A program made the translations under genes and the position numbers. Below are positions 1,564 to 26,703 of a stretch of 64,000 bases of DNA, one piece after another (the stretch's first letter is position 1; each line of letters begins with the position of its first letter). The stretch is from Candidatus Poribacteria bacterium (lineage in GTDB: Bacteria; Poribacteria; WGA-4E; WGA-3G): contig OZ251518.1 in the NCBI GenBank assembly GCA_965242965.1, forward strand, positions 5,280,001 through 5,344,000, in the 5' to 3' direction. A model generated the notes under the pieces. It made no database searches. It saw nothing but the letters and a program-made list of their open reading frames with translations, and had not been told where the DNA came from.

Positions 1564-2885
1564 TGGATTACAACGCAGCTATCGCCTACATCACCGAATT
1601 TATTGACTACGAACGAAGTCCTGACTTTTCTCGGCAGGCGCGGTCTTACAATCTCAACCGTATCTCGCGTCTATTGGCACTGCTAGGAAATCCGCAGGAA
1701 CGGCTGCGCGTTGTCCATGTCGCGGGAAGCAAGGGCAAGGGCTCAACGGCGGCACTTATCTCGTCGATTCTCAGCCACGCAGGCTATAAGACTGGGTTAT
1801 TTACCTCGCCGCATCTGATAACGCCGCGGGAACGGTGCCGCATCGACGGTGAGCTCATTTCAGAAGCAGACGTTGCACTGTGCATCGAGAAAATGAGAAC
1901 GGCGATTGACGAGGTGTCGCGTCTGGAATTCGGGCGCGTCTCCTTCTTTGAAATCTACACCGCGCTCGCTTTTTGCTACTTTGCCGATAAAGCGACGGAC
2001 TTCGCTGTCGTTGAGGTAGGATTAGGCGGACGGCTCGATGCAACGAACGTGGTGAATCCTGTCGCAACCGTCATCACGCCAATTGGTTTAGAGCACACGG
2101 CCATCCTCGGTGAAACGCACGCCGCCATCGCCGCGGAGAAGGCGGAGATTATTAAGCCCGGGTGTCCCCTCGCTTTGGCACCGCAGGTGCCGGAGGCACA
2201 GGCAGTTTTCGAGAGGGTTGCGGCGGAACGGAACGCGCCAATTGTTGCCGCGAAAGTAAGCAACGAGATGTGTCGCGCGCGCGGACAAAGCGCGCCTACT
2301 GAACCGCTGGGACAACACTTTGACGTGGAGGACTACCCGGGGCTTTTTATGCCGCTTCTGGGGGAACATCAGCGCGTTAACGCCGCAACTGCCATCGCGG
2401 GGATTGAGTGCCTCACTCAGCGCGGGTATGCTATTCCATGTGAAAGCGTCTATCAAGGCATCGCGCAGGTGGAGTGGCCCGGACGGATGCAGGTGATTCA
2501 GGGTGCGCCGATTGTGCTACTTGATGGCGCGCATTCGCCGGAAGCGATGCAGCTTTTGTGCCGAGAGATACGCCGAAACTTCCGTTACAACCGACTGGTT
2601 TTCGTTGTCAGTCTCATGCGGGACAAGGCAGTGAAGGCGGTTGGCGAGATAGTCTGTCAAGAGGCGGATGCTGTGATTGTCACGGAGGTATCCGATAACC
2701 CGCGGGTGATGCCCGCGCACGACATCCAACGTGCATGGCAAGCAATGTGTCAAGAGGTTACTGTCTCTCCAACGCCGAAGGAGGCACTGAAAACGGCATT
2801 GGCCTTGGCATCGTCAGAAGACCTGGTTTGCGTTACCGGTTCGCTCTATCTCGTCGGCGAGGTTTTGCATGTTACACGCAATTAA
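1563..2885 (+). CDS. folC: Folylpolyglutamate/dihydrofolate synthase
   Basis: HVAGSKGKGS, TSPHL, EVGLGGRLDATN, LDGAH, GSLYLVG; GTG start overlaps the glyA stop. Confidence 0.95.
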   Translation: MDYNAAIAYITEFIDYERSPDFSRQARSYNLNRISRLLALLGNPQERLRVVHVAGSKGKGSTAALISSILSHAGYKTGLFTSPHLITPRERCRIDGELISEADVALCIEKMRTAIDEVSRLEFGRVSFFEIYTALAFCYFADKATDFAVVEVGLGGRLDATNVVNPVATVITPIGLEHTAILGETHAAIAAEKAEIIKPGCPLALAPQVPEAQAVFERVAAERNAPIVAAKVSNEMCRARGQSAPTEPLGQHFDVEDYPGLFMPLLGEHQRVNAATAIAGIECLTQRGYAIPCESVYQGIAQVEWPGRMQVIQGAPIVLLDGAHSPEAMQLLCREIRRNFRYNRLVFVVSLMRDKAVKAVGEIVCQEADAVIVTEVSDNPRVMPAHDIQRAWQAMCQEVTVSPTPKEALKTALALASSEDLVCVTGSLYLVGEVLHVTRN

Positions 2886-2958
2886 TCGTAAAAATCCATA
2901 GGAGCATCTCCTAGCACCTTGAAAATGTGAAGGTTTCCAAAGAAAAGCGTCCTTTTCC

Positions 2959-2987
2959 TTGACAAAGCGAACAGTTTGTGGTAGACT
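2959..2987 (+). promoter_or_regulatory. Sigma70-type promoter upstream of tnpB
   Basis: TTGACA-17 bp-TAGACT with TG extension. Confidence 0.75.
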
Positions 2988-2989
2988 AG

Positions 2990-3075
2990 GTGTTACCGTG
3001 TGGCAGGCTGTGTTCAACACTGACATCCTGTCAGCGTCAGCCTCCGCCTTTTGAACGAGGTAGACACGGAAACAT
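2990..3075 (+). ncRNA. Structured pseudoknotted 5' leader RNA of tnpB
   Basis: P1 2990-3001/3064-3075, P2 3002-3010/3038-3045, P3 3020-3025/3029-3034, P4 3046-3050/3057-3061, pseudoknot GTTCAA/TTGAAC; same fold at 22853-22942. Confidence 0.65.
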
Positions 3076-3078
3076 ACG

Positions 3079-4191
3079 GTGAACACGATGACACACAAAA
3101 CACATAACATTGCACTGCGCCCGAACGCGGAGCAAGAACAAGCCTTCCGCCAGCACGCAGGGTATCGCCGCTTCGTCTATAACTATGCGCTATCTGCTTT
3201 CAAAGCAGGTCTGGCCGCCGGCGAATGGCGAAGTGGCCGTGCGATTCGCACGGGATTCAATGCCAGAAAAGACACCGAGTTTGAATGGCAGCAGCCGTTA
3301 ATCGCCCGCGTGGCATCGCATGCGTTTGACGATTTTAATACGGCGTGCCAGCGGTGGAAACACAACCTTGCAAAGTTCCCGCGCTACAAACGACGGAACG
3401 GGAAACAGTCGTTTCGCATTGATAACGCCCGGGATTCGGTGAAGTTCAAGGGTAAACGGATTAAACTTCCGAAGATTGGCTGGGTGCGAACGTTTGAGAC
3501 GTTAAGGTTCAAAGGCGACATCATGCGAGTCGTCATCAAAAAGCGAGGCCACCGTTGGTTTGCATCACTACTTATCGACACCGAAACACCTGTCAGGTTT
3601 CCGGATACCTGCGGAAACCTGCCTACCGTAGGTATTGATGTAGGTATCAACAGTCTCGCCACGTTGAGTGATGGCCGCGTCTTTGAAAATCCCCGTGCGT
3701 TCCGGCGGTATGAACGCAAGCTTGCGCGCCTGCAACGGAGTCTGTCCCGTTCGGTTTACCTGAGCAATAACTGGTATCGGAAGAAGGCGAAGGTGACTCG
3801 GTTGCATTATCGTATCTCATGTCTTCGTGAAGATGCACATCACAAAGCAACGTCAGCCATCGTGCAGGGCGTTTCTGCGATAGGCATTGAGACACTGCAG
3901 GTGACGCACCTATTGAAAAATCGGCGCATTGCAAAGGCATTGCAAGATGCTGCACTGGGTGGATTTCTATACAAGTTGGTATCCAAAGCGACTGCACTCG
4001 GTATTGACGTAGTGAAGGCAGATAGATTCTTCGCCTCCTCAAAAACCTGCAGTGCTTGTGGAAACGTGAAGGAAGACTTAACCCTCGCAGATAGGAGTTA
4101 CCACTGCGAAACTTGCGGCGTGACTGTGGATAGAGACGTGAACGCCGCAATGAACTTAAAGCCTGTCGCCGCTGGTTTGACGGAGACGTAA
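3079..4191 (+). CDS. tnpB: RNA-guided endonuclease TnpB (IS607/IS200-IS605 family), no tnpA nearby
   Basis: N-terminal HTH_OrfB-like segment; RuvC residues GIDVG, GIETL, DRDVNAA; Zn ribbon CSACG..CETCG. Confidence 0.95.
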   Translation: MNTMTHKTHNIALRPNAEQEQAFRQHAGYRRFVYNYALSAFKAGLAAGEWRSGRAIRTGFNARKDTEFEWQQPLIARVASHAFDDFNTACQRWKHNLAKFPRYKRRNGKQSFRIDNARDSVKFKGKRIKLPKIGWVRTFETLRFKGDIMRVVIKKRGHRWFASLLIDTETPVRFPDTCGNLPTVGIDVGINSLATLSDGRVFENPRAFRRYERKLARLQRSLSRSVYLSNNWYRKKAKVTRLHYRISCLREDAHHKATSAIVQGVSAIGIETLQVTHLLKNRRIAKALQDAALGGFLYKLVSKATALGIDVVKADRFFASSKTCSACGNVKEDLTLADRSYHCETCGVTVDRDVNAAMNLKPVAAGLTET

Positions 4192-4299
4192 AACGCCTGT
4201 GGACACCGTGTCAGACTCGGGTTGCCGAGCAATGGTGGGTGAAGCAGGAATTGAGTAACCTGCGGGAATCTTCGGAAACCTGCGGAGAAAAAGGAACAG
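4160..4299 (+). ncRNA. Putative omegaRNA scaffold / element right end of tnpB
   Basis: ACGCCTGTGGA...GTGAAGCAGGAA block typical of tnpB 3' ends, ctcgg/ccgag hairpin, repeated aacctgcgg; boundaries approximate. Confidence 0.55.
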
Positions 4300-4305
4300 A
4301 AAATA

Positions 4306-6662
4306 ATGCTTGAAATCAACGCTAAAAGTGCAAAGCGTGGGAGTCGGCTTCTGTGCACGCTGATAGTTCCGTTTCTTGGGCTCAGCGCGGTTGAGTCGGC
4401 TTTTGCCCAGACAACCGTGCTGCCCACCGTGCCGGCGGCATGGTGGATCGCGCCTGTCGGCTCCCTGATCGCTTTAGGGTTCGCACTCTATTTTTACCGT
4501 GCTGTCATGAAACAAGATGAAGGCAACTCTACCATGCGTGCCATCGCGCAATCTGTCCGCGAGGGTGCGATGGCATACCTCAGACAACAGTATAAAGTCG
4601 TCGGCATCGTCTTCGTTGTGCTATGCGTCATTTTTCTGTTTATGGCGTTTGTCTTGAAGGCACAAAACCAGGTTATCCCCTTTGCCTTCCTCACCGGTGG
4701 GTTCTTCTCTGGGCTCTGCGGTTTTCTCGGCATGAAGACAGCGACGAACGCCTCCGCACGCACGACAAGCGCGGCGATGCAAGGACTCAACGCCGGCCTG
4801 AAGGTATCCTTCCGGGCAGGCGCGGTGATGGGACTCGTCGTCGTCGGCTTCGCACTGCTTGACATCACTGGATGGTTTCTCATCCTCTATTACGTGTTTC
4901 CGAAGGTATTCCCCGGATTTCTGGCGGAGAACCCGCTGCCGGAGATAACGGTGATAATGTTGAGTTTCGGGATGGGCGCATCAACGCAAGCACTCTTCGC
5001 ACGCGTTGGCGGCGGCATTTATACAAAAGCGGCGGATGTCGGCGCAGACTTAGTTGGAAAAGTCGAGGCTGGTATTCCAGAAGATGACCCGAGGAACCCT
5101 GCCGTTATCGCCGATAACGTCGGTGATAACGTCGGCGATGTCGCGGGATGGGGGCAGACCTTTATGAATCTTACGCCGGCTCCATTCTCGCGACAGCCGC
5201 CCTCGGTGTCGCTGCCGTCGCGGCGAAGGAACACGATAACCTCGCGCTCCAACTCAAATACCTCTCTGCACCGATGATGATCGCCGGCGTTGGTGTGCTC
5301 CTCTCAATCCTCGGCATCTACATGGTGCGCACAAAAGAGGGGGCATCAATGAAGGATTTGATGGGCTCGCTCAACTTCGGGATTAACGGGAGTGCAATCG
5401 GCATCGCGCTTTTGTCCATTCCGGTGGTGCTTTACTTGGATTTGCCCAACAAGTGGCAGATCTGGGGGGCGATTGTCACCGGCCTTGTAGCGGGACTCAT
5501 CATCGGAAAGGTCACGGAAGTCTTCACCTCACACGATTATTCGCCGACGCGCGCCATCGCGAAACAAGCGGAAACCGGACCCGCCACGGTGATTATTGAG
5601 GGAATTGCGGTAGGCATGGAATCCACTGCTATTCCTGTCTTGACGATTATCGGCGCGGTGGCGGTGAGTTACTATCTCCCCGGCGGTGCAAGCGAGCCGC
5701 TGATGGGACTTTACGGTGTTGGTATCGCCGCCGTTGGAATGCTGGCGACGTTGGGCATCACTCTCGCAACGGATGCCTACGGCCCCATCGCGGACAACGC
5801 CGGTGGCAACGCCGAAATGTCGGAATTAGAAGAGAGCGTCCGGCAGCGCACAGATCAGCTCGATGCACTCGGCAACACAACTGCCGCGACAGGCAAGGGA
5901 TTTGCCATCGGTTCGGCGGCACTCACCGCGCTCGCGCTCTTGGCTGCTTATCTGGAGGAGGTGCGATACGGCTTGAAACACCTCGCCGGCATGGAGACGT
6001 TGGTCATCCCCGGCGAAGGAAGCATTGATACCTTGAAGGTGACGATTAGCCAGTTTATGGCATACTACAACGTCACGCTGATGAATCCGCAAGTGCTCAT
6101 CGGGCTGTTTATCGGCGCGGTGATGGCGTTTTATTTCTGTGCGCTTACCATGAAGGCTGTCGGACGCGCGGCAGGTTCGATGGTAGAAGAGGTGCGCCGT
6201 CAATTTCGCGAGAATCCCGGTATCATGAAGCGCGAACAGCAGCCGGATTACGCGCGATGCGTTGAGATTTCGACTGTCGGGGCGCAACGGGAGATGATTT
6301 TTCCTTCCCTCATCGCCATTATTGTCCCTGTCGCTGTCGGCTTAATTTTCAACGTCGCCGGTGTGTTGGGGCTCCTCGCCGGCGGGTTGGCAAGCGGTTT
6401 TGTGCTGGCAATCATGATGGCGAACGCGGGCGGTGCGTGGGATAACGCCAAAAAGTTCATTGAGCAAGGCGCGCACGGCGGCAAAAACTCCGAGGAACAC
6501 AAAGCCACCGTCGTCGGTGATACCGTCGGAGACCCGTTCAAAGACACCTCCGGTCCCTCGCTGAATATCTTGATTAAACTGATGTCGATGGTTTCCGTAG
6601 TGTTTGCCGGCCTCATCGCCAAATATGGTGGTGTGTTTAGTACGTGGTTGGGCATCCAATAA
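4306..6662 (+). pseudogene. hppA: Membrane-bound K+-dependent pyrophosphatase, split by a 1-nt frameshift at ~5146 (probably an assembly error)
   Basis: [36 protein letters not shown]; DVAG and MGADL lie in different frames at gcgggatg. Confidence 0.9.
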
Positions 6663-22416: not shown

Positions 22417-22727
22417 AAGTCATCGCAGATTTATGCATCGTCCCTCTCGGCGTTGGCGTATCTGTCTCAAAATACGTCACAGCGTGCGAAGAAGTGCTGA
22501 AAGAAGCCGGCTTGAAAACGAAACTTCACGCCTACGGCACTAACATTGAAGGCGAATGGGATGCAGTCTTCGCCGCAATCCGGCGATGCCATGAAGTGGT
22601 GCATGAGATGGGCGCGCCGCGTATCACGACAACGCTCAAGTTCGGCACTCGCACCGACCGGCACCAAACGATGGAGGATAAGGTGAACAGCGTCGAAAAG
22701 CAGGCGGCAAAAAAACTTGACTTTTAA
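22413..22727 (+). CDS. MTH1187/YkoF-family thiamine-binding protein
   Basis: SVSKYV, HAYGTNIEGEWD, RTDR motifs. Confidence 0.88.
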   Translation: MKVIADLCIVPLGVGVSVSKYVTACEEVLKEAGLKTKLHAYGTNIEGEWDAVFAAIRRCHEVVHEMGAPRITTTLKFGTRTDRHQTMEDKVNSVEKQAAKKLDF

Positions 22728-22755
22728 TTTTTTTTGTGTTAACATCATTTTCGAT

Positions 22756-23188
22756 GTCAAATCCCCATGCTTTAGCATGCGGAATGTAGACATCGCTAAC
22801 GGTCTGGAATGAAAAAAAGGCTTGCATTCCAAAGTGAAATGTGGTATACTATCTGTAACCTGCTGGATAGGCGTTCCACCCGCGACATTCCAACGTTGCG
22901 GTGCCTATTCGTCCTCGTGGAACGGGACAGGGTGGGTTGCAGGTGAGAACCTGACAAAACATCGACGAGAGAAACCGACGCGAAAGTCGGGTCATGCTGC
23001 ATCGTGTTGGTTTCTCTCACCCTATCTTCTGGGCGGGGCATCAGTCCAGTGTGAGAGTGAGTGTTAGACGCGGATAACCGTGCATCTCACACGTTGCGGT
23101 CGGTCGCACACATCACAGAATCCATAGCAGAAGCCACGAGGATACCGACAAACTGAATCCTCCTGCTTCAGCGGGTGGAGTATGTCAA
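22756..23188 (+). mobile_element. ORF-less IS200/IS605-type element with promoter and structured RNA
   Basis: Left end gtcaaatccccatgctttagcatgcgg; right end gaatcctcctgcttcagcgggtggagtatgTCAA; no credible ORF. Confidence 0.8.
22822..22850 (+). promoter_or_regulatory. Sigma70-type promoter inside the IS605-type element
   Basis: TTGCAT-17 bp-TATACT with TG extension. Confidence 0.75.
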
Positions 23189-23208
23189 AATAGTTTGCAA
23201 CGTTAGTT
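22853..23208 (+). ncRNA. Putative stand-alone omegaRNA: pseudoknot leader, 17-bp hairpin, TnpB-type scaffold and 3' guide
   Basis: Four-helix pseudoknot 22853-22942; gagagaaaccgacgcga/tcgtgttggtttctctc stem; gtgtgaga/tctcacac stem; right-end hairpin. Confidence 0.6.
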
Positions 23209-23870
23209 GAGGGTGTTTCACAAATCGCTCAACGTCGCGGTGACAGGCCCCCGCGCTATTGCTGGTAGGAGAGACCTCCTAGTCTCGATGAGGTAAGGCG
23301 TGCATTCTCTGGACCCGTTCGGGTGCAGGCGCACCCTAACTACAGGGCCAGCGTGCGCTCCCCGACTGTAGTTCAGGATCGCCTGATCCTGAACTGTTTG
23401 TGATCAGGCGATTACAAACTACAGAGGGGAAAACATACATCGTGACGATGGAGATCGCGGGGGAAACCCTCTCGGATGCGCGTATGGCATCCGAGGGCCC
23501 CCGCGCTACGGTAAAAAACGTCTTTTAGGTCCGTAGGACCTTAATGTCTATAGCACGTGAGGTTGCGAAGAACGCTAAGGTCCTTTAGGTCCTTAATGTG
23601 TTTTGCCAGGGCCGCGCGGGTTTTATTAAGGACCTAAAGGACCTTGGAAACGGGCTGACACGTGTTGCTATAGACATGTAGGACCTAAAGGACCTAAGAT
23701 GGCATCTTGCCGATGGCCAACGCGTGGGAAACCCGCTCGGATGCGCGTATGGAAACCTCCGAGGGCCCCCGCGCTACGGGAACATCGAGACCGGGAGGTC
23801 TCTCCTACGGAGAAGCCATCGAGACCGGGAGGTCTCTCCTACCGGGGAAAACGAGTTATGAAACACCCGC
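23209..23870. mobile_element. MITE-like REP mosaic
   Basis: TIRs gagggtgtttcac / atgaaacacccgc; flanks acgttagtt / acgttaatt (8/9 match). Confidence 0.85.
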
Positions 23871-23916
23871 ACGTTAATTGTTATTAATTTTCATAGAAAA
23901 AAAGGAGTACGTCTTC

Positions 23917-24609
23917 ATGCAAAGGAGATTCTGGGTTTACGCCTGCTGCGCATTGGTATTTTTTATAGCAGTGCCATTCGCAAGCGCGCTAGATAAAATC
24001 GAGGGACCCTGGATGTGGATAATCACCGAAAGCGAAGCCGGTCAGGGCGGCGCACTCGCCACCGACATTGACGGCATTGACGAAGCCACAAAGGGGAAAC
24101 TCACCGAAGAGGATGTCGCAAAAGAAGGGATTACCGATAAAATCCTGAAGGTTAAGTTTCCCGATAAACTTGAGTGGACCGAGGGTGAAATCGCCCCGGT
24201 CGGCGGAAACAACATCAACGACATGCTCATCAAAATTAAGTTGGGACCCGGCGGCGATGTCAATGACTATTGTTCCTATGCCGTTATCAACGCCGTGTCG
24301 AAGAAGAAACTCACCCGTGTGGAAGCCCAGGTCGGCAGCGACGATTCCATTAAGGTGTGGATGAACGGCAAAGAGGTTTGGGTAAACGCTGTCAACCGTG
24401 GTGCCGGCGGCTTTCAAGACACGTTTCCCGTTGACATCAACAAAGGCGATAACGTGCTGATGGTGAAAGTCTGCGAACGCGGTGGAGGCTGGAGCATGTT
24501 TGTCGGCATCGATGCCGATTTGGAATACAACCTGAAGTTCAGAGGGTTACCTGTTGAACCCGCCGGGAAATTGGCTACTACCTGGGCGGCAATCCGAAGC
24601 GCGTATTAA
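23917..24609 (+). CDS. Secreted beta-sandwich protein with C-terminal TTW tail
   Basis: Signal peptide; GSDDSIKVWMNG; ends PVEPAGKLATTWAAIRSAY. Confidence 0.85.
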   Translation: MQRRFWVYACCALVFFIAVPFASALDKIEGPWMWIITESEAGQGGALATDIDGIDEATKGKLTEEDVAKEGITDKILKVKFPDKLEWTEGEIAPVGGNNINDMLIKIKLGPGGDVNDYCSYAVINAVSKKKLTRVEAQVGSDDSIKVWMNGKEVWVNAVNRGAGGFQDTFPVDINKGDNVLMVKVCERGGGWSMFVGIDADLEYNLKFRGLPVEPAGKLATTWAAIRSAY

Positions 24610-24794
24610 CCGCGCCATCCGAAAGCGCGTATTAGACGCGCCGACTCAGCAAAATTATTATTGAGCAAAATTATTATTGCTTGATTTAATTCTGCGTTAT
24701 TTGCTATACTAATTAAGGTATAATAAAAAAGGTTGTCCCATCCTTTCAGAAAGGGGAGGGACAACGCAAAATTAACCCAATTGGAGGTTTTTGA

Positions 24795-26033
24795 ATGTTG
24801 AGAAAAACATTTACGATAGGGCTGGCATGCGTGATGGCACTTTTCGTCATGACGCACGTTGCGCAAGCCCAAGATAAAATTACCGGTCCTTGGCTGTGGG
24901 TTGTTGCTCCAACCGAGGCAAACGAAGGCGGCGCGAATTCTACCGATCTCGATTCGCTTGATGCCGCTAGCGGCGGCGATGTGACAGAAGCCGATGTCGC
25001 TGCAAACGGCGCGAAGGAAGGCGACGCAGTCGGCGACTTCGCGTGGACGCTCGGTGAAATCGCCGATACTGGCGGCAATAACGTCAACGATGCCCTCAAT
25101 GAAATCGGAATGACCGAGGGCGACGTGAACGACCATTCGTCTTACGCGCTTATCACGCTTGAATCCGCAACGGATCAGTCCGATGTGACGATGAAGGTAG
25201 GCAGCGATGACTCCATCAAAGTCTGGCTTAACGGCGAAGAAGTTCACAATAACGCTGTCAACCGCGGCGCAGGCGACTTCCAAGACGAATTCCAAGTCAA
25301 TCTCGTCGCAGGCGATAATCTGTTGCTGGTGAAAGTCAGTGAGCGTGGCGGTGGTTGGAGCATGTTCGTCGGCATCGATGCGGATGTAACGGCTGTCTAT
25401 AAAGAGCCTGTGCCCCCCGTAACCGGCAAAATCACAGGGCCCTGGCTCTGGGTTATTGCGCCAACCGAGGCAAACGAAGGCGGCGCGAATTCCACCGATC
25501 TCGATCAGCTCGAAGCCGCCAGCGGTGGCGATGTGACAGAAGCGATGGTAGCGAGTGAAGGCGCAGCTGAAGGAGACCCGGTCGGCGACTTGGCGTGGAC
25601 AGTTGGTGAGATTGCGGATACCGGCGGTAATAACGTCAACGATCTCGTCAATGAACTCGGACTCGGCGAAGGCGACGTGAACGATCACTCTGTCTACGGA
25701 CTCATCGTTCTGAATTCGCCGGCAGACCAGAGCGGCGTGCCGATGAAGGTCGGCAGCGACGACTCTGTCAAAGTCTGGGTGAACGGCGAAGTTGTCCATA
25801 CCAACGCTGTCAACCGCGGCGCAGGCGATTTCCAAGATGACTTCAATGTCAACCTGAATGCCGGTGCCAACATCTTGCTGGTGAAAGTCAGTGAGCGTGG
25901 TGGCGGTTGGAGCTTGTTCGCCGGTGTCGGTGGCGAAGGCGTTACCACGGCTCTTCCTGAATCGCTTGGTACGGCGGTTGAGGCGGCTGGTAAAGTTATC
26001 ACGACTTGGGGTAGCTTGAAATCCGCCAAGTAG
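24795..26033 (+). CDS. Secreted acidic protein with two tandem copies of the same domain and a TTW tail
   Basis: KITGPWLWV...GSDDS.KVW.NG...ERGGGWS twice; ends AVEAAGKVITTWGSLKSAK. Confidence 0.88.
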   Translation: MLRKTFTIGLACVMALFVMTHVAQAQDKITGPWLWVVAPTEANEGGANSTDLDSLDAASGGDVTEADVAANGAKEGDAVGDFAWTLGEIADTGGNNVNDALNEIGMTEGDVNDHSSYALITLESATDQSDVTMKVGSDDSIKVWLNGEEVHNNAVNRGAGDFQDEFQVNLVAGDNLLLVKVSERGGGWSMFVGIDADVTAVYKEPVPPVTGKITGPWLWVIAPTEANEGGANSTDLDQLEAASGGDVTEAMVASEGAAEGDPVGDLAWTVGEIADTGGNNVNDLVNELGLGEGDVNDHSVYGLIVLNSPADQSGVPMKVGSDDSVKVWVNGEVVHTNAVNRGAGDFQDDFNVNLNAGANILLVKVSERGGGWSLFAGVGGEGVTTALPESLGTAVEAAGKVITTWGSLKSAK

Positions 26034-26101
26034 GCCAAGTAGTCTACGCGAATTCGGATATTCTATTTTTCGTAGGTTCGCTTTCTAAGTGTCCCCGAAC
26101 G

Positions 26102-26135
26102 AAAAAAGGCGCGGTTGCAAACCGCGCCTTTTTTT
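26102..26135. terminator. Bidirectional intrinsic terminator (REP-related stem)
   Basis: aaaaaaggcgcggtt-gca-aaccgcgccttttttt. Confidence 0.85.
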
Positions 26136-26150
26136 GTTACAATGTTACCT

Positions 26151-26703
26151 GAGGGTGTTTCATATCTCGATGCCTTCCCCGTAGGAGAGACCTCCTGGTC
26201 TTGATTTCTTCGGGTAGGAGAGACCTCCCGGTCTCGATGCAATAGGGCGGCGCGCCTCCCGGGGCCGCAGCGGCAGAAAGCCCCCTTCATCGTAGGGCGG
26301 TGGGAAAACCTGTCCCTCGCCATCGTCCTCTTCAGGTCCGTAGGACCTGAATGTCTATAGCAGCCCAAACGCTAAAGGCTCTAAGGTCCTTTAGGTCCTT
26401 AATAGATTTTGCCAGGGCCGCGTGGTTTTTATTAAGGACCTAAAGGACCTTGAAAACGGCACGACACGTGTTGCTATAGACATTAAGGACCTAAAGGACC
26501 TTGAAAACGGGCCGATACGTTTTTCTATAGACATTAAGGACCTAAAGGACCTAAAACGCCACCGCTTGACGATGGCACTCGCGGGGGACAGGCCCCCGCG
26601 CTACGGGAAAAATAGTAGGTCAGGATCGCCTGATCCTGACCCGTTCGGGATCAGGCGATCCCGAACTACAGAGGTTGGCCCGATGCCTTTATGAAACATC
26701 CTC
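26151..26703. mobile_element. MITE-like REP mosaic
   Basis: TIRs gagggtgtttcat / atgaaacatcctc; tandem ctatagacattaaggacctaaaggacc units. Confidence 0.8.

Follow-up and report, generated by a model that had tools for sequence, protein, structure and literature searches.

Cas12 descends from TnpB nucleases, which have themselves become genome-editing tools; to our knowledge, little is known about how transposons control TnpB expression. In the 64,000-nt stretch of DNA analysed here (the window), two segments of different sequence, 2990–3075 and 22853–22942, had been predicted to form the same pseudoknotted RNA fold at the 5′ end of two TnpB-type elements and to be an unrecognised cis-regulatory RNA, a TnpB-binding module or a ribozyme. 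This raises the question of what the fold is, which elements carry it and what it may do there.

Architecture of the fold in copies A and B

The letters of both segments in the original prediction are correct on direct reading. RNAfold together with direct reading gives the predicted four-helix layout in both copies: a closing helix P1, a helix P2 beginning with GG, an asymmetric bulge, a hairpin P3 stacked on P2, a short P4 and an AG linker. Copy A (2985–3080) folds with −35.7 kcal/mol (z −2.42; 3 of 200 shuffles as stable) and copy B (22848–22947) with −48.2 kcal/mol (z −4.43; none of 200 shuffles as stable). The complementarity between the P4 loop and the bulged strand is perfect, as claimed, over 6 bp in A and 7 bp in B, and both folds begin 2 nt past a TG-n-TAnACT (extended −10) box. 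The parts of the two copies are as follows (R2 is the six-copy covariance model described below).

2990..3075, + strand: fold copy A, from RNAfold and direct reading; R2 match at 2988–3078, E 3.4e-12
2990–3001/3064–3075, + strand: P1 of copy A, GUGUUaCCGUGU/ACACGGaAACAU, 12 positions with one A.A mismatch; inner part, predicted to be transcribed, 2995–3001
3002–3010/3038–3045, + strand: P2 of copy A, GG(c)AGGCUG/CAGCCUCC
3012..3017, + strand: pseudoknot strand GUUCAA of copy A in the P2/P3 bulge; partner UUGAAC 3051–3056 in the P4 loop
3018–3037, + strand: P3 hairpin of copy A
3046–3061, + strand: P4 of copy A, GCCUU/GAGGU, loop UUGAAC 3051–3056
3062–3063, + strand: AG linker of copy A
22851..22945, + strand: fold copy B, from RNAfold and direct reading; R2 match, E 2.1e-16
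22851–22856/22939–22944 (outer) and 22857–22864/22931–22938 (inner), + strand: P1 of copy B, 14 pairs
22865–22873/22902–22910, + strand: P2 of copy B, GGAUAGGC/GCCUAUUC
22873..22879, + strand: pseudoknot strand GUUCCAC of copy B; partner GUGGAAC 22917–22923 in the P4 loop
22880–22901, + strand: P3 of copy B
22911–22928, + strand: P4 of copy B, loop GUGGAAC 22917–22923
22929–22930, + strand: AG linker of copy B

Judged by sequence comparison, the feature is a conserved RNA domain of ~85–95 nt, a three-way junction (P1, the P2-bulge-P3 arm and P4) with a pseudoknot of 6–8 bp.

Family membership, covariation and pseudoknot

BLAST and tblastn revealed four further copies of the fold in the source genome, which brings the total to six: A, A2, T3, B, B2 and B3. 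A2 and T3 lie 5′ of two more tnpB genes, and B2 and B3 are paralogs of B. A covariance model built from the three B-type copies alone placed A2, T3 and A at ranks 4, 6 and 8 (E 0.001, 0.01 and 0.058) in an unfiltered scan of 74,504 bases with its own three training copies among the top ranks; the remaining high ranks were palindromic repeats. The models were built stepwise because a MAFFT-only alignment misregistered the internal helices: in a two-copy MAFFT alignment these were out of register, and RNAalifold chose just P1 and the pseudoknot.

In the six-copy structural alignment 93.8% of the cells are paired (slid controls 34–48%) and 26 of the 36 pairs are double-changed, a result that none of 500 shuffles matches. 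The corresponding model (R2) recovers the same six copies from the source genome. It also gives one weak seventh match there (G000:C1:5575186-5575288, 29.2 bits, E 0.004). An alignment of 39 copies has 89.7% of its cells paired, a fraction inflated by fitting to the structure of the model and addressed by slid controls (38–43%) and shuffled ones: the covariation score is 0.72 as against 0.22 in shuffles, with none of 500 shuffles reaching 0.72. Here 34 of the 36 pairs are double-changed, in line with the originally claimed covariation of nearly all stem pairs.

The pseudoknot was tested separately because a covariance model cannot represent it. All 39 copies have 6–8 contiguous Watson-Crick pairs, with 17 distinct duplex sequences among them, while bulges combined with loops of other pseudoknot types average 3.9 pairs and shuffled loops 2.8. 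On these comparisons the pseudoknot is proven by covariation.

Support is uneven along P1. The inner pairs of alignment columns 7–13 are unpaired in 0–1 of 37 rows and the junction pair in 6 of 37, and the inner 8 pairs covary cleanly; the six outer pairs fail in 5–10 of 37 rows, often by gaps. About eight columns are at least 90% identical, and each of these belongs to a helix, to the P3 loop or to the pseudoknot. Linkers at the junction (0–5 nt) vary in length and sequence and hold no conserved columns.

The 14-mer GTGTTACCGTGTGG, which comprises the P1 5′ strand and the GG of P2 (2990–3003 in A), is identical in A, A2 and T3 and is extended to 15 nt by a preceding T in A2 and T3. This identity exists despite TnpBs that are 25–44% identical among the three elements and despite the covariation of the other helices. 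It points to a sequence-specific constraint on the P1 5′ strand.

Elements carrying the fold

The elements around the two copies contain the following parts.

2899..2913, + strand: left-end subterminal hairpin of element A, TAGGAG-CAT-CTCCTA, a 6-pair stem flagged on the − strand; position as in sister elements
3088..4191, + strand: tnpB of element A; Pfam OrfB_IS605 2.8e-24, Cas12f1-like_TNB 2.8e-18, HTH_OrfB_IS605 3.9e-11 (frame from GTG 3079)
4098..4301, + strand: 3′-end segment of element A with the putative omegaRNA and the right end, assigned by the placement of omegaRNA in TnpB elements
22739..23188, + strand: element B, an ORF-less IS200/IS605-type derivative (PATE-like), collinear over its full length with two paralogs at 76–86% identity
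22763..22782, + strand: left-end hairpin of element B, CCCCATGC-TTTA-GCATGCGG with one mismatch, by direct reading; kept in sister elements
23031..23188, + strand: 3′ part of element B, with a tnpB 3′-end relic, an omegaRNA-like scaffold, a right-end hairpin (23159–23180) and the terminal TATGTCAA (23181–23188)

The 3′ region of A (4098..4301) recurs as fragments at two other places of the genome with 73.6% and 90% identity, and that of B (23031..23188) can be aligned to the 3′ ends of A2 and T3, two elements that do encode TnpB. No ORF with a Pfam match follows copy B. The prediction of two TnpB-type elements is wrong for B, which is an ORF-less derivative of ~450 bp without a tnpB gene; the fold does, as proposed, travel with OMEGA elements, since it accompanies TnpB elements of the IS200/IS605 type (TnpB domains, end hairpins). 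An imperfect left-end hairpin 5′ of the promoter and a right-end hairpin with TATGTCAA at the far end are common to A2, T3, B, B2 and B3, and the source genome has two Y1_Tnp matches over the cut-off. By its end hairpins, TATGTCAA, TnpB and the genomic Y1 transposase, the carrier is an IS200/IS605-type element.

A tnpB gene immediately follows the fold in 11 of the 41 copies examined, as confirmed by Pfam (A, A2, T3, L029, L031, L037, L039, L041, L049, L050 and the frameshifted L040); two of the 11 come from a search of TnpB-relative loci. The TnpBs of the fold-linked copies share just 24–29% identity with the protein of copy A. In the source genome the fold is present on 3 of the 5 full-length TnpB-like frames. 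The two frames without it are G000:C1:3124253-3125627 and G000:C1:973053-973640; one adjoins a Y1 transposase frame with two in-frame TGA and the other lies in an open frame of 557 aa.

B, B2 and B3 are collinear units of ~450 bp, each with a left-end hairpin, promoter, fold, tnpB 3′ relic/omegaRNA-like region and right end; promoter, fold and omegaRNA-like scaffold form a single unit of ~340 nt. They are PATE-like deletion derivatives of the Geobacillus type, PATEs being described for Geobacillus in the Meers et al. preprint. Although the three differ by 14–24% in all segments (an apparent divergence of about 17%), 98.1% of their fold cells are paired, which is not significant against shuffles with three sequences (33 of 500 as good). 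Seven of nine single-step changes keep the pair (rough binomial ~0.008 against an assumed 1/3). Such retention in diverged ORF-less copies hints that the fold has some function apart from the translation of tnpB in cis.

Among relatives, most of the other copies appear to be ORF-less or decayed, with unrelated genes farther downstream. Recruitment of the fold as a leader of other genes appears unlikely, the ORFs downstream of copies without tnpB being unrelated (MutS, radical SAM, ABC transporter, EF-Tu, xylose-isomerase-like, HEPN_Swt1, HNH_2, DUF6884 or no Pfam match). The sequence after the fold in copies without tnpB resembles, by eye, a decayed tnpB start, and by the same visual comparison these copies appear to be decayed or ORF-less elements. 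In L022, L026, L032, L035, L036, L042 and L044 (~1596–1660, RNA orientation) the fold precedes a strong AAGGGAGG-type SD, UUG, AACAUU and a U run, with e.g. HEPN_Swt1, HNH_2 or DUF6884 genes after these; these seven may be decayed transposon fragments or leaders captured by other selfish genes.

Several features of the surroundings are recorded here. A REP/MITE-like stack of short repeats (23200–23880) directly follows element B, and its pieces recur hundreds of times genome-wide; a Y1_Tnp match in a 370-aa frame (G000:C1:3147583-3147918) could be a REP-associated transposase matching these repeats. The right end of element A abuts an H+-pyrophosphatase gene, which starts ~115 nt past the tnpB stop and is split into overlapping frames (4306–5277 and 5148–6662, within 4306–6662) by a frameshift or an assembly error. 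At 26062–26190 there is a bidirectional terminator-like hairpin, AAAAAAGGCGCGG...CCGCGCCTTTTTT, with several weak sub-threshold Rfam sRNA matches.

Promoter and predicted start of the RNA

Both folds are preceded by a promoter-like site.

2959..2987, + strand: promoter of element A, TTGACA, 17 nt, TG-n-TAGACT; 10/12 matches with TG present, by promoter prediction
22822..22850, + strand: promoter of element B, TTGCAT, 17 nt, TG-n-TATACT; by direct reading and promoter-score listing

The site of B was not called by promoter prediction because its −35 box TTGCAT matches in just 3 of 6 positions. By consensus matching, +1 is expected at about 2994–2995 in A and at 22857 in B. In 31 of 39 copies the promoter score is at least 9 and the −10 box ends 5–8 nt before the first nucleotide of inner P1 (alignment column 7), while only 3 of 859 random anchors at the same loci combine such score and spacing; the promoter is intact in B, B2 and B3. 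Since the spacing has this value and P1 is solid from column 7, the predicted +1 is the first nucleotide of the well-supported P1. RNAs begun there (2995 in A, 22857 in B) adopt the same fold.

The original prediction depended on a start site that does not exclude most of P1. The predicted +1 does remove the outer 5–6 pairs, and the inner 8 stay. Transcripts from the promoter of the element itself probably lack the outer third of P1 as drawn by hand. We infer that a sigma-70-type promoter inside the left end, flanked by the transposase-binding hairpin and the tnpB start codon, drives a transcript that begins at the predicted +1 and has the fold as its 5′-terminal leader; in this predicted transcript copy A is the 5′ UTR of the tnpB gene.

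Alternative closing partners of P1

Each of the nine tnpB-linked copies examined offers the P1 5′ strand a choice of two 3′ partners, which are adjacent and exclude each other. The energy gap between the two closures ranges from 0.1 to 5.5 kcal/mol over these nine copies, with the pseudoknot, which is common to both states, left out of the energies. Shuffling the rest of the 3′ region yields an equally good alternative 0–6 times per 100 trials in eight copies and 17 times per 100 in the ninth. In 9/9 copies the distal partner has its 3′ end 6–9 nt before AUG, at the ribosome-binding region.

3076..3086, + strand: distal P1 partner of copy A, ACGGUGAACAC, which holds SD-like GGUGA (3078–3082); annotated end 1 nt before ATG
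22939..22953, + strand: distal partner GCAGGU of copy B, overlapping SD-like AGGUGA and followed by the relic start codon CTG (22951–22953)

In copy A the closures differ by 1.5 kcal/mol (ddG) and 1 of 100 shuffles is as good; for the second partner of copy B the count is 2 of 60. The same stretch of B (22939..22953) also forms a small hairpin CAGGU-GAGA-ACCUG, and CTGACAAAACAT of B is homologous, by eye only, to ATGACACACAAAACACAT of A. Family-wide, a second partner is present in 29 of 31 evaluable copies and in 20 of these 29 it beats at least 95% of shuffles; eight copies with no P1 in the minimum-energy fold were left out of the count. As in the SD sequestration of the IS200 type, the ribosome-binding region can sit in a 5′UTR helix, in silico, in 9/9 copies. 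The cis-regulatory function originally suggested is in part upheld: the position, from predicted +1 to the ribosome-binding region, and the alternative closing helices fit it.

Distribution among genomes

Among relatives, the six-copy model has matches in 31 of 151 genomes; the class sample gives 30 of 151 and the phylum sample 31 of 151. Every match belongs to one of two families (24–25 of 90–99 genomes in one, 5–6 of 25–29 in the other), with up to 15 copies per genome in some; the other families gave no matches in the samples searched. Among TnpB-relative loci the fold lies upstream in 2 of 4 from Poribacteria and in none of 6 from elsewhere (five cyanobacterial, one from an uncultured bacterium). 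A whole-genome check of a small sample found it in 2/2 Poribacteria genomes and 0/3 others. The known range is narrow: within the genomes searched, just two families of Poribacteria have the fold. Both its reach and testing in the host are limited because the hosts are uncultured.

Comparison with catalogued RNAs

Rfam 15 gives no match at gathering score in the whole window. At E≤10 there is none in 2700–4600 around A, and none of the 12 weak matches in 22600–26400 around B overlaps 22851–22945. The fold is therefore unrecognised by Rfam, as had been supposed, and is a candidate new family. No description of a tnpB 5′ leader RNA was found in the literature searched, including the accessible text of the Meers et al. 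preprint and of Altae-Tran et al. 2023. The fold is also distinct from the 3′ omegaRNA, in agreement with the original prediction: it is placed at the 5′ end and terminates 1–12 nt before the tnpB start codon, and the B-type covariance model found no look-alike in omegaRNA regions.

The ribozyme option found no support. Small self-cleaving ribozymes (hammerhead, twister, twister-sister, hatchet, pistol, HDV-like) gave no Rfam match, no conserved unpaired core is present, and circularly permuted forms were compared by eye only. Nor do conserved unpaired nucleotides suggest the ligand pocket of a riboswitch, the conserved columns being confined to helices, the P3 loop and the pseudoknot. Mutually exclusive helices of the riboswitch type are present in silico as the alternative P1 partners.

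Possible role of the fold

The reading that we favour, with a probability of about one half, is a cis-acting leader that would shield the 5′ end and gate tnpB translation. With P1 starting at the predicted +1, the transcript would have no free 5′ tail, and the knotted domain could shield it from 5′-end-dependent decay; this single transcript would be both tnpB mRNA and omegaRNA precursor. Pairing with the proximal partner would close the fold and leave the ribosome-binding region free, while pairing with the distal one would bury it, so that the choice of partner by P1 would set how often the ribosome-binding site is free and thereby set or gate TnpB translation. Some observations are at odds with this leader model. 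The SD-like element is weak in some lineages (GAAAG in L029–L040), a tandem duplication, and not a switch, could account for the two adjacent partners, and the pairing of the fold is kept in the ORF-less B, B2 and B3. Moreover, a plain hairpin would do both jobs, as in IS200, so that the model does not account for why a knotted three-way junction is so strictly conserved.

Conservation of the junction across divergent TnpBs, together with its retention in ORF-less copies, keeps alive a reading in which a partner, most obviously TnpB, recognises the fold. The fold would then be a sensor, either an autoregulatory operator bound by TnpB or a riboswitch-like aptamer, in which binding shifts the balance of P1 closure. 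Its layout is that of translational riboswitches, a junction domain whose closing-helix strand also acts as an anti-SD, with a competing partner, and its 3D design is kept through TnpB divergence to 24–29% identity and in copies without an ORF, which fits recognition by a macromolecule in trans. A specific ligand is however hard to reconcile with the few conserved columns, variable linkers of 0–5 nt and lack of an apparent pocket, the downstream genes are those of transposons and not metabolic ones, and the model search brought up no look-alike of the fold in omegaRNA regions. A new class of trans-responsive switch, in which a small molecule, TnpB or some other factor of the transposon or the host picks the P1 closure, appears rather unlikely, though it is the strongest of the alternatives.

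A part in the guide-RNA pathway, with the fold needed for making, stabilising or loading omegaRNA and not for translation, is less probable still. It would explain why ORF-less derivatives retain promoter, fold and omegaRNA-like scaffold as a ~340-nt unit with an intact promoter in all three. The omegaRNA scaffold, however, works without 5′ sequences, and in coding elements ~1.1 kb lies between it and the fold. In the systems described in PMC10691335, omegaRNA is located downstream of tnpB, which also speaks against this role. Improbable to a similar degree is the idea that outer P1 acts only in read-through transcripts by burying the ribosome-binding site. Fold-back inhibition of this type is found in IS10/IS50, where sequence upstream of the +1 of the element pairs with the ribosome-binding site. 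The outer 5′ strand, although situated between the −10 box and the predicted +1, pairs in ~3/4 of rows with some double changes, and the SD window is less accessible in 5′-extended RNAs in 9/9 copies. With shuffled upstream sequence as control, only T3 stands out (0/40) and A weakly (2–5/40), the other seven not at all, and in a direct complementarity test none of the 9 copies did better than shuffles.

Quite improbable is a structure of the single-stranded top-strand DNA that serves transposition. The + strand folds with DNA parameters too (z −3.6 for A, −2.2 for B), and IS200/IS605 transposition uses folded single-stranded ends; on the other hand, the transposase needs only hairpins and cleavage sites, separate subterminal hairpins are already there, the helices contain many G.U pairs, and a DNA structure has no need of anchoring to the predicted +1 of a promoter. 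Very little speaks for a self-cleaving ribozyme trimming the 5′ end of transposon transcripts, the least probable reading of all: a pseudoknotted junction at the 5′ end of a mobile-element RNA recalls the ribozymes of retroelements, but the order of helices is nested, unlike in HDV-like ribozymes, and neither a ribozyme match at E≤10 nor a conserved unpaired core is found.

The fold offers a concrete, testable handle on the control of TnpB dosage and on the stability of the mRNA/omegaRNA precursor, and expression constructs could use it as a compact 5′ module. If the trans-responsive switch were true, the nuclease would be synthesised in step with its own level or with the state of the cell, and OMEGA systems would have their first dedicated regulatory RNA.

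Relation to known systems

The nearest precedent is the leader of IS200. According to PMC4513863, the left end of IS200 has a hairpin that acts against impinging transcription and a 5′UTR stem-loop that keeps the SD sequestered, prevents 30S binding and limits translation. The likeness to this tnpA 5′UTR (PMC4513863) lies in the left-end position between guarding hairpin and start codon and in an SD that can sit within a helix. IS200 has a single stem-loop 5′ of tnpA and an antisense RNA, whereas the fold of Poribacteria is a knotted three-way junction 5′ of tnpB that has two closing partners and is kept in ORF-less derivatives.

The omegaRNA (reRNA) of TnpB is likewise structured and pseudoknotted and belongs to the same elements and the same (predicted) transcript. 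It differs in that it overlaps the tnpB 3′ end and the right end of the element and carries the guide, while the present fold is at the 5′ end with no adjoining guide. mRNA stabilisers of the ompA type are simple 5′-terminal stem-loops; they resemble the fold in having a helix that begins at +1 or a few nucleotides from it (as predicted here), and a role as stabiliser would by itself leave the conserved pseudoknot unexplained.

In translational riboswitches of the purine class, a three-way junction holds parallel arms tied by distal tertiary pairing, and the closing strand competes with an SD-sequestering helix. The fold shares with them the three-way junction, the distal tertiary tie and a closing-helix strand in competition with an SD helix; it has no conserved junction nucleotides, no association with metabolic genes and no Rfam match, and its tertiary contact joins a loop to a bulge, whereas in purine-class riboswitches it joins a loop to a loop.
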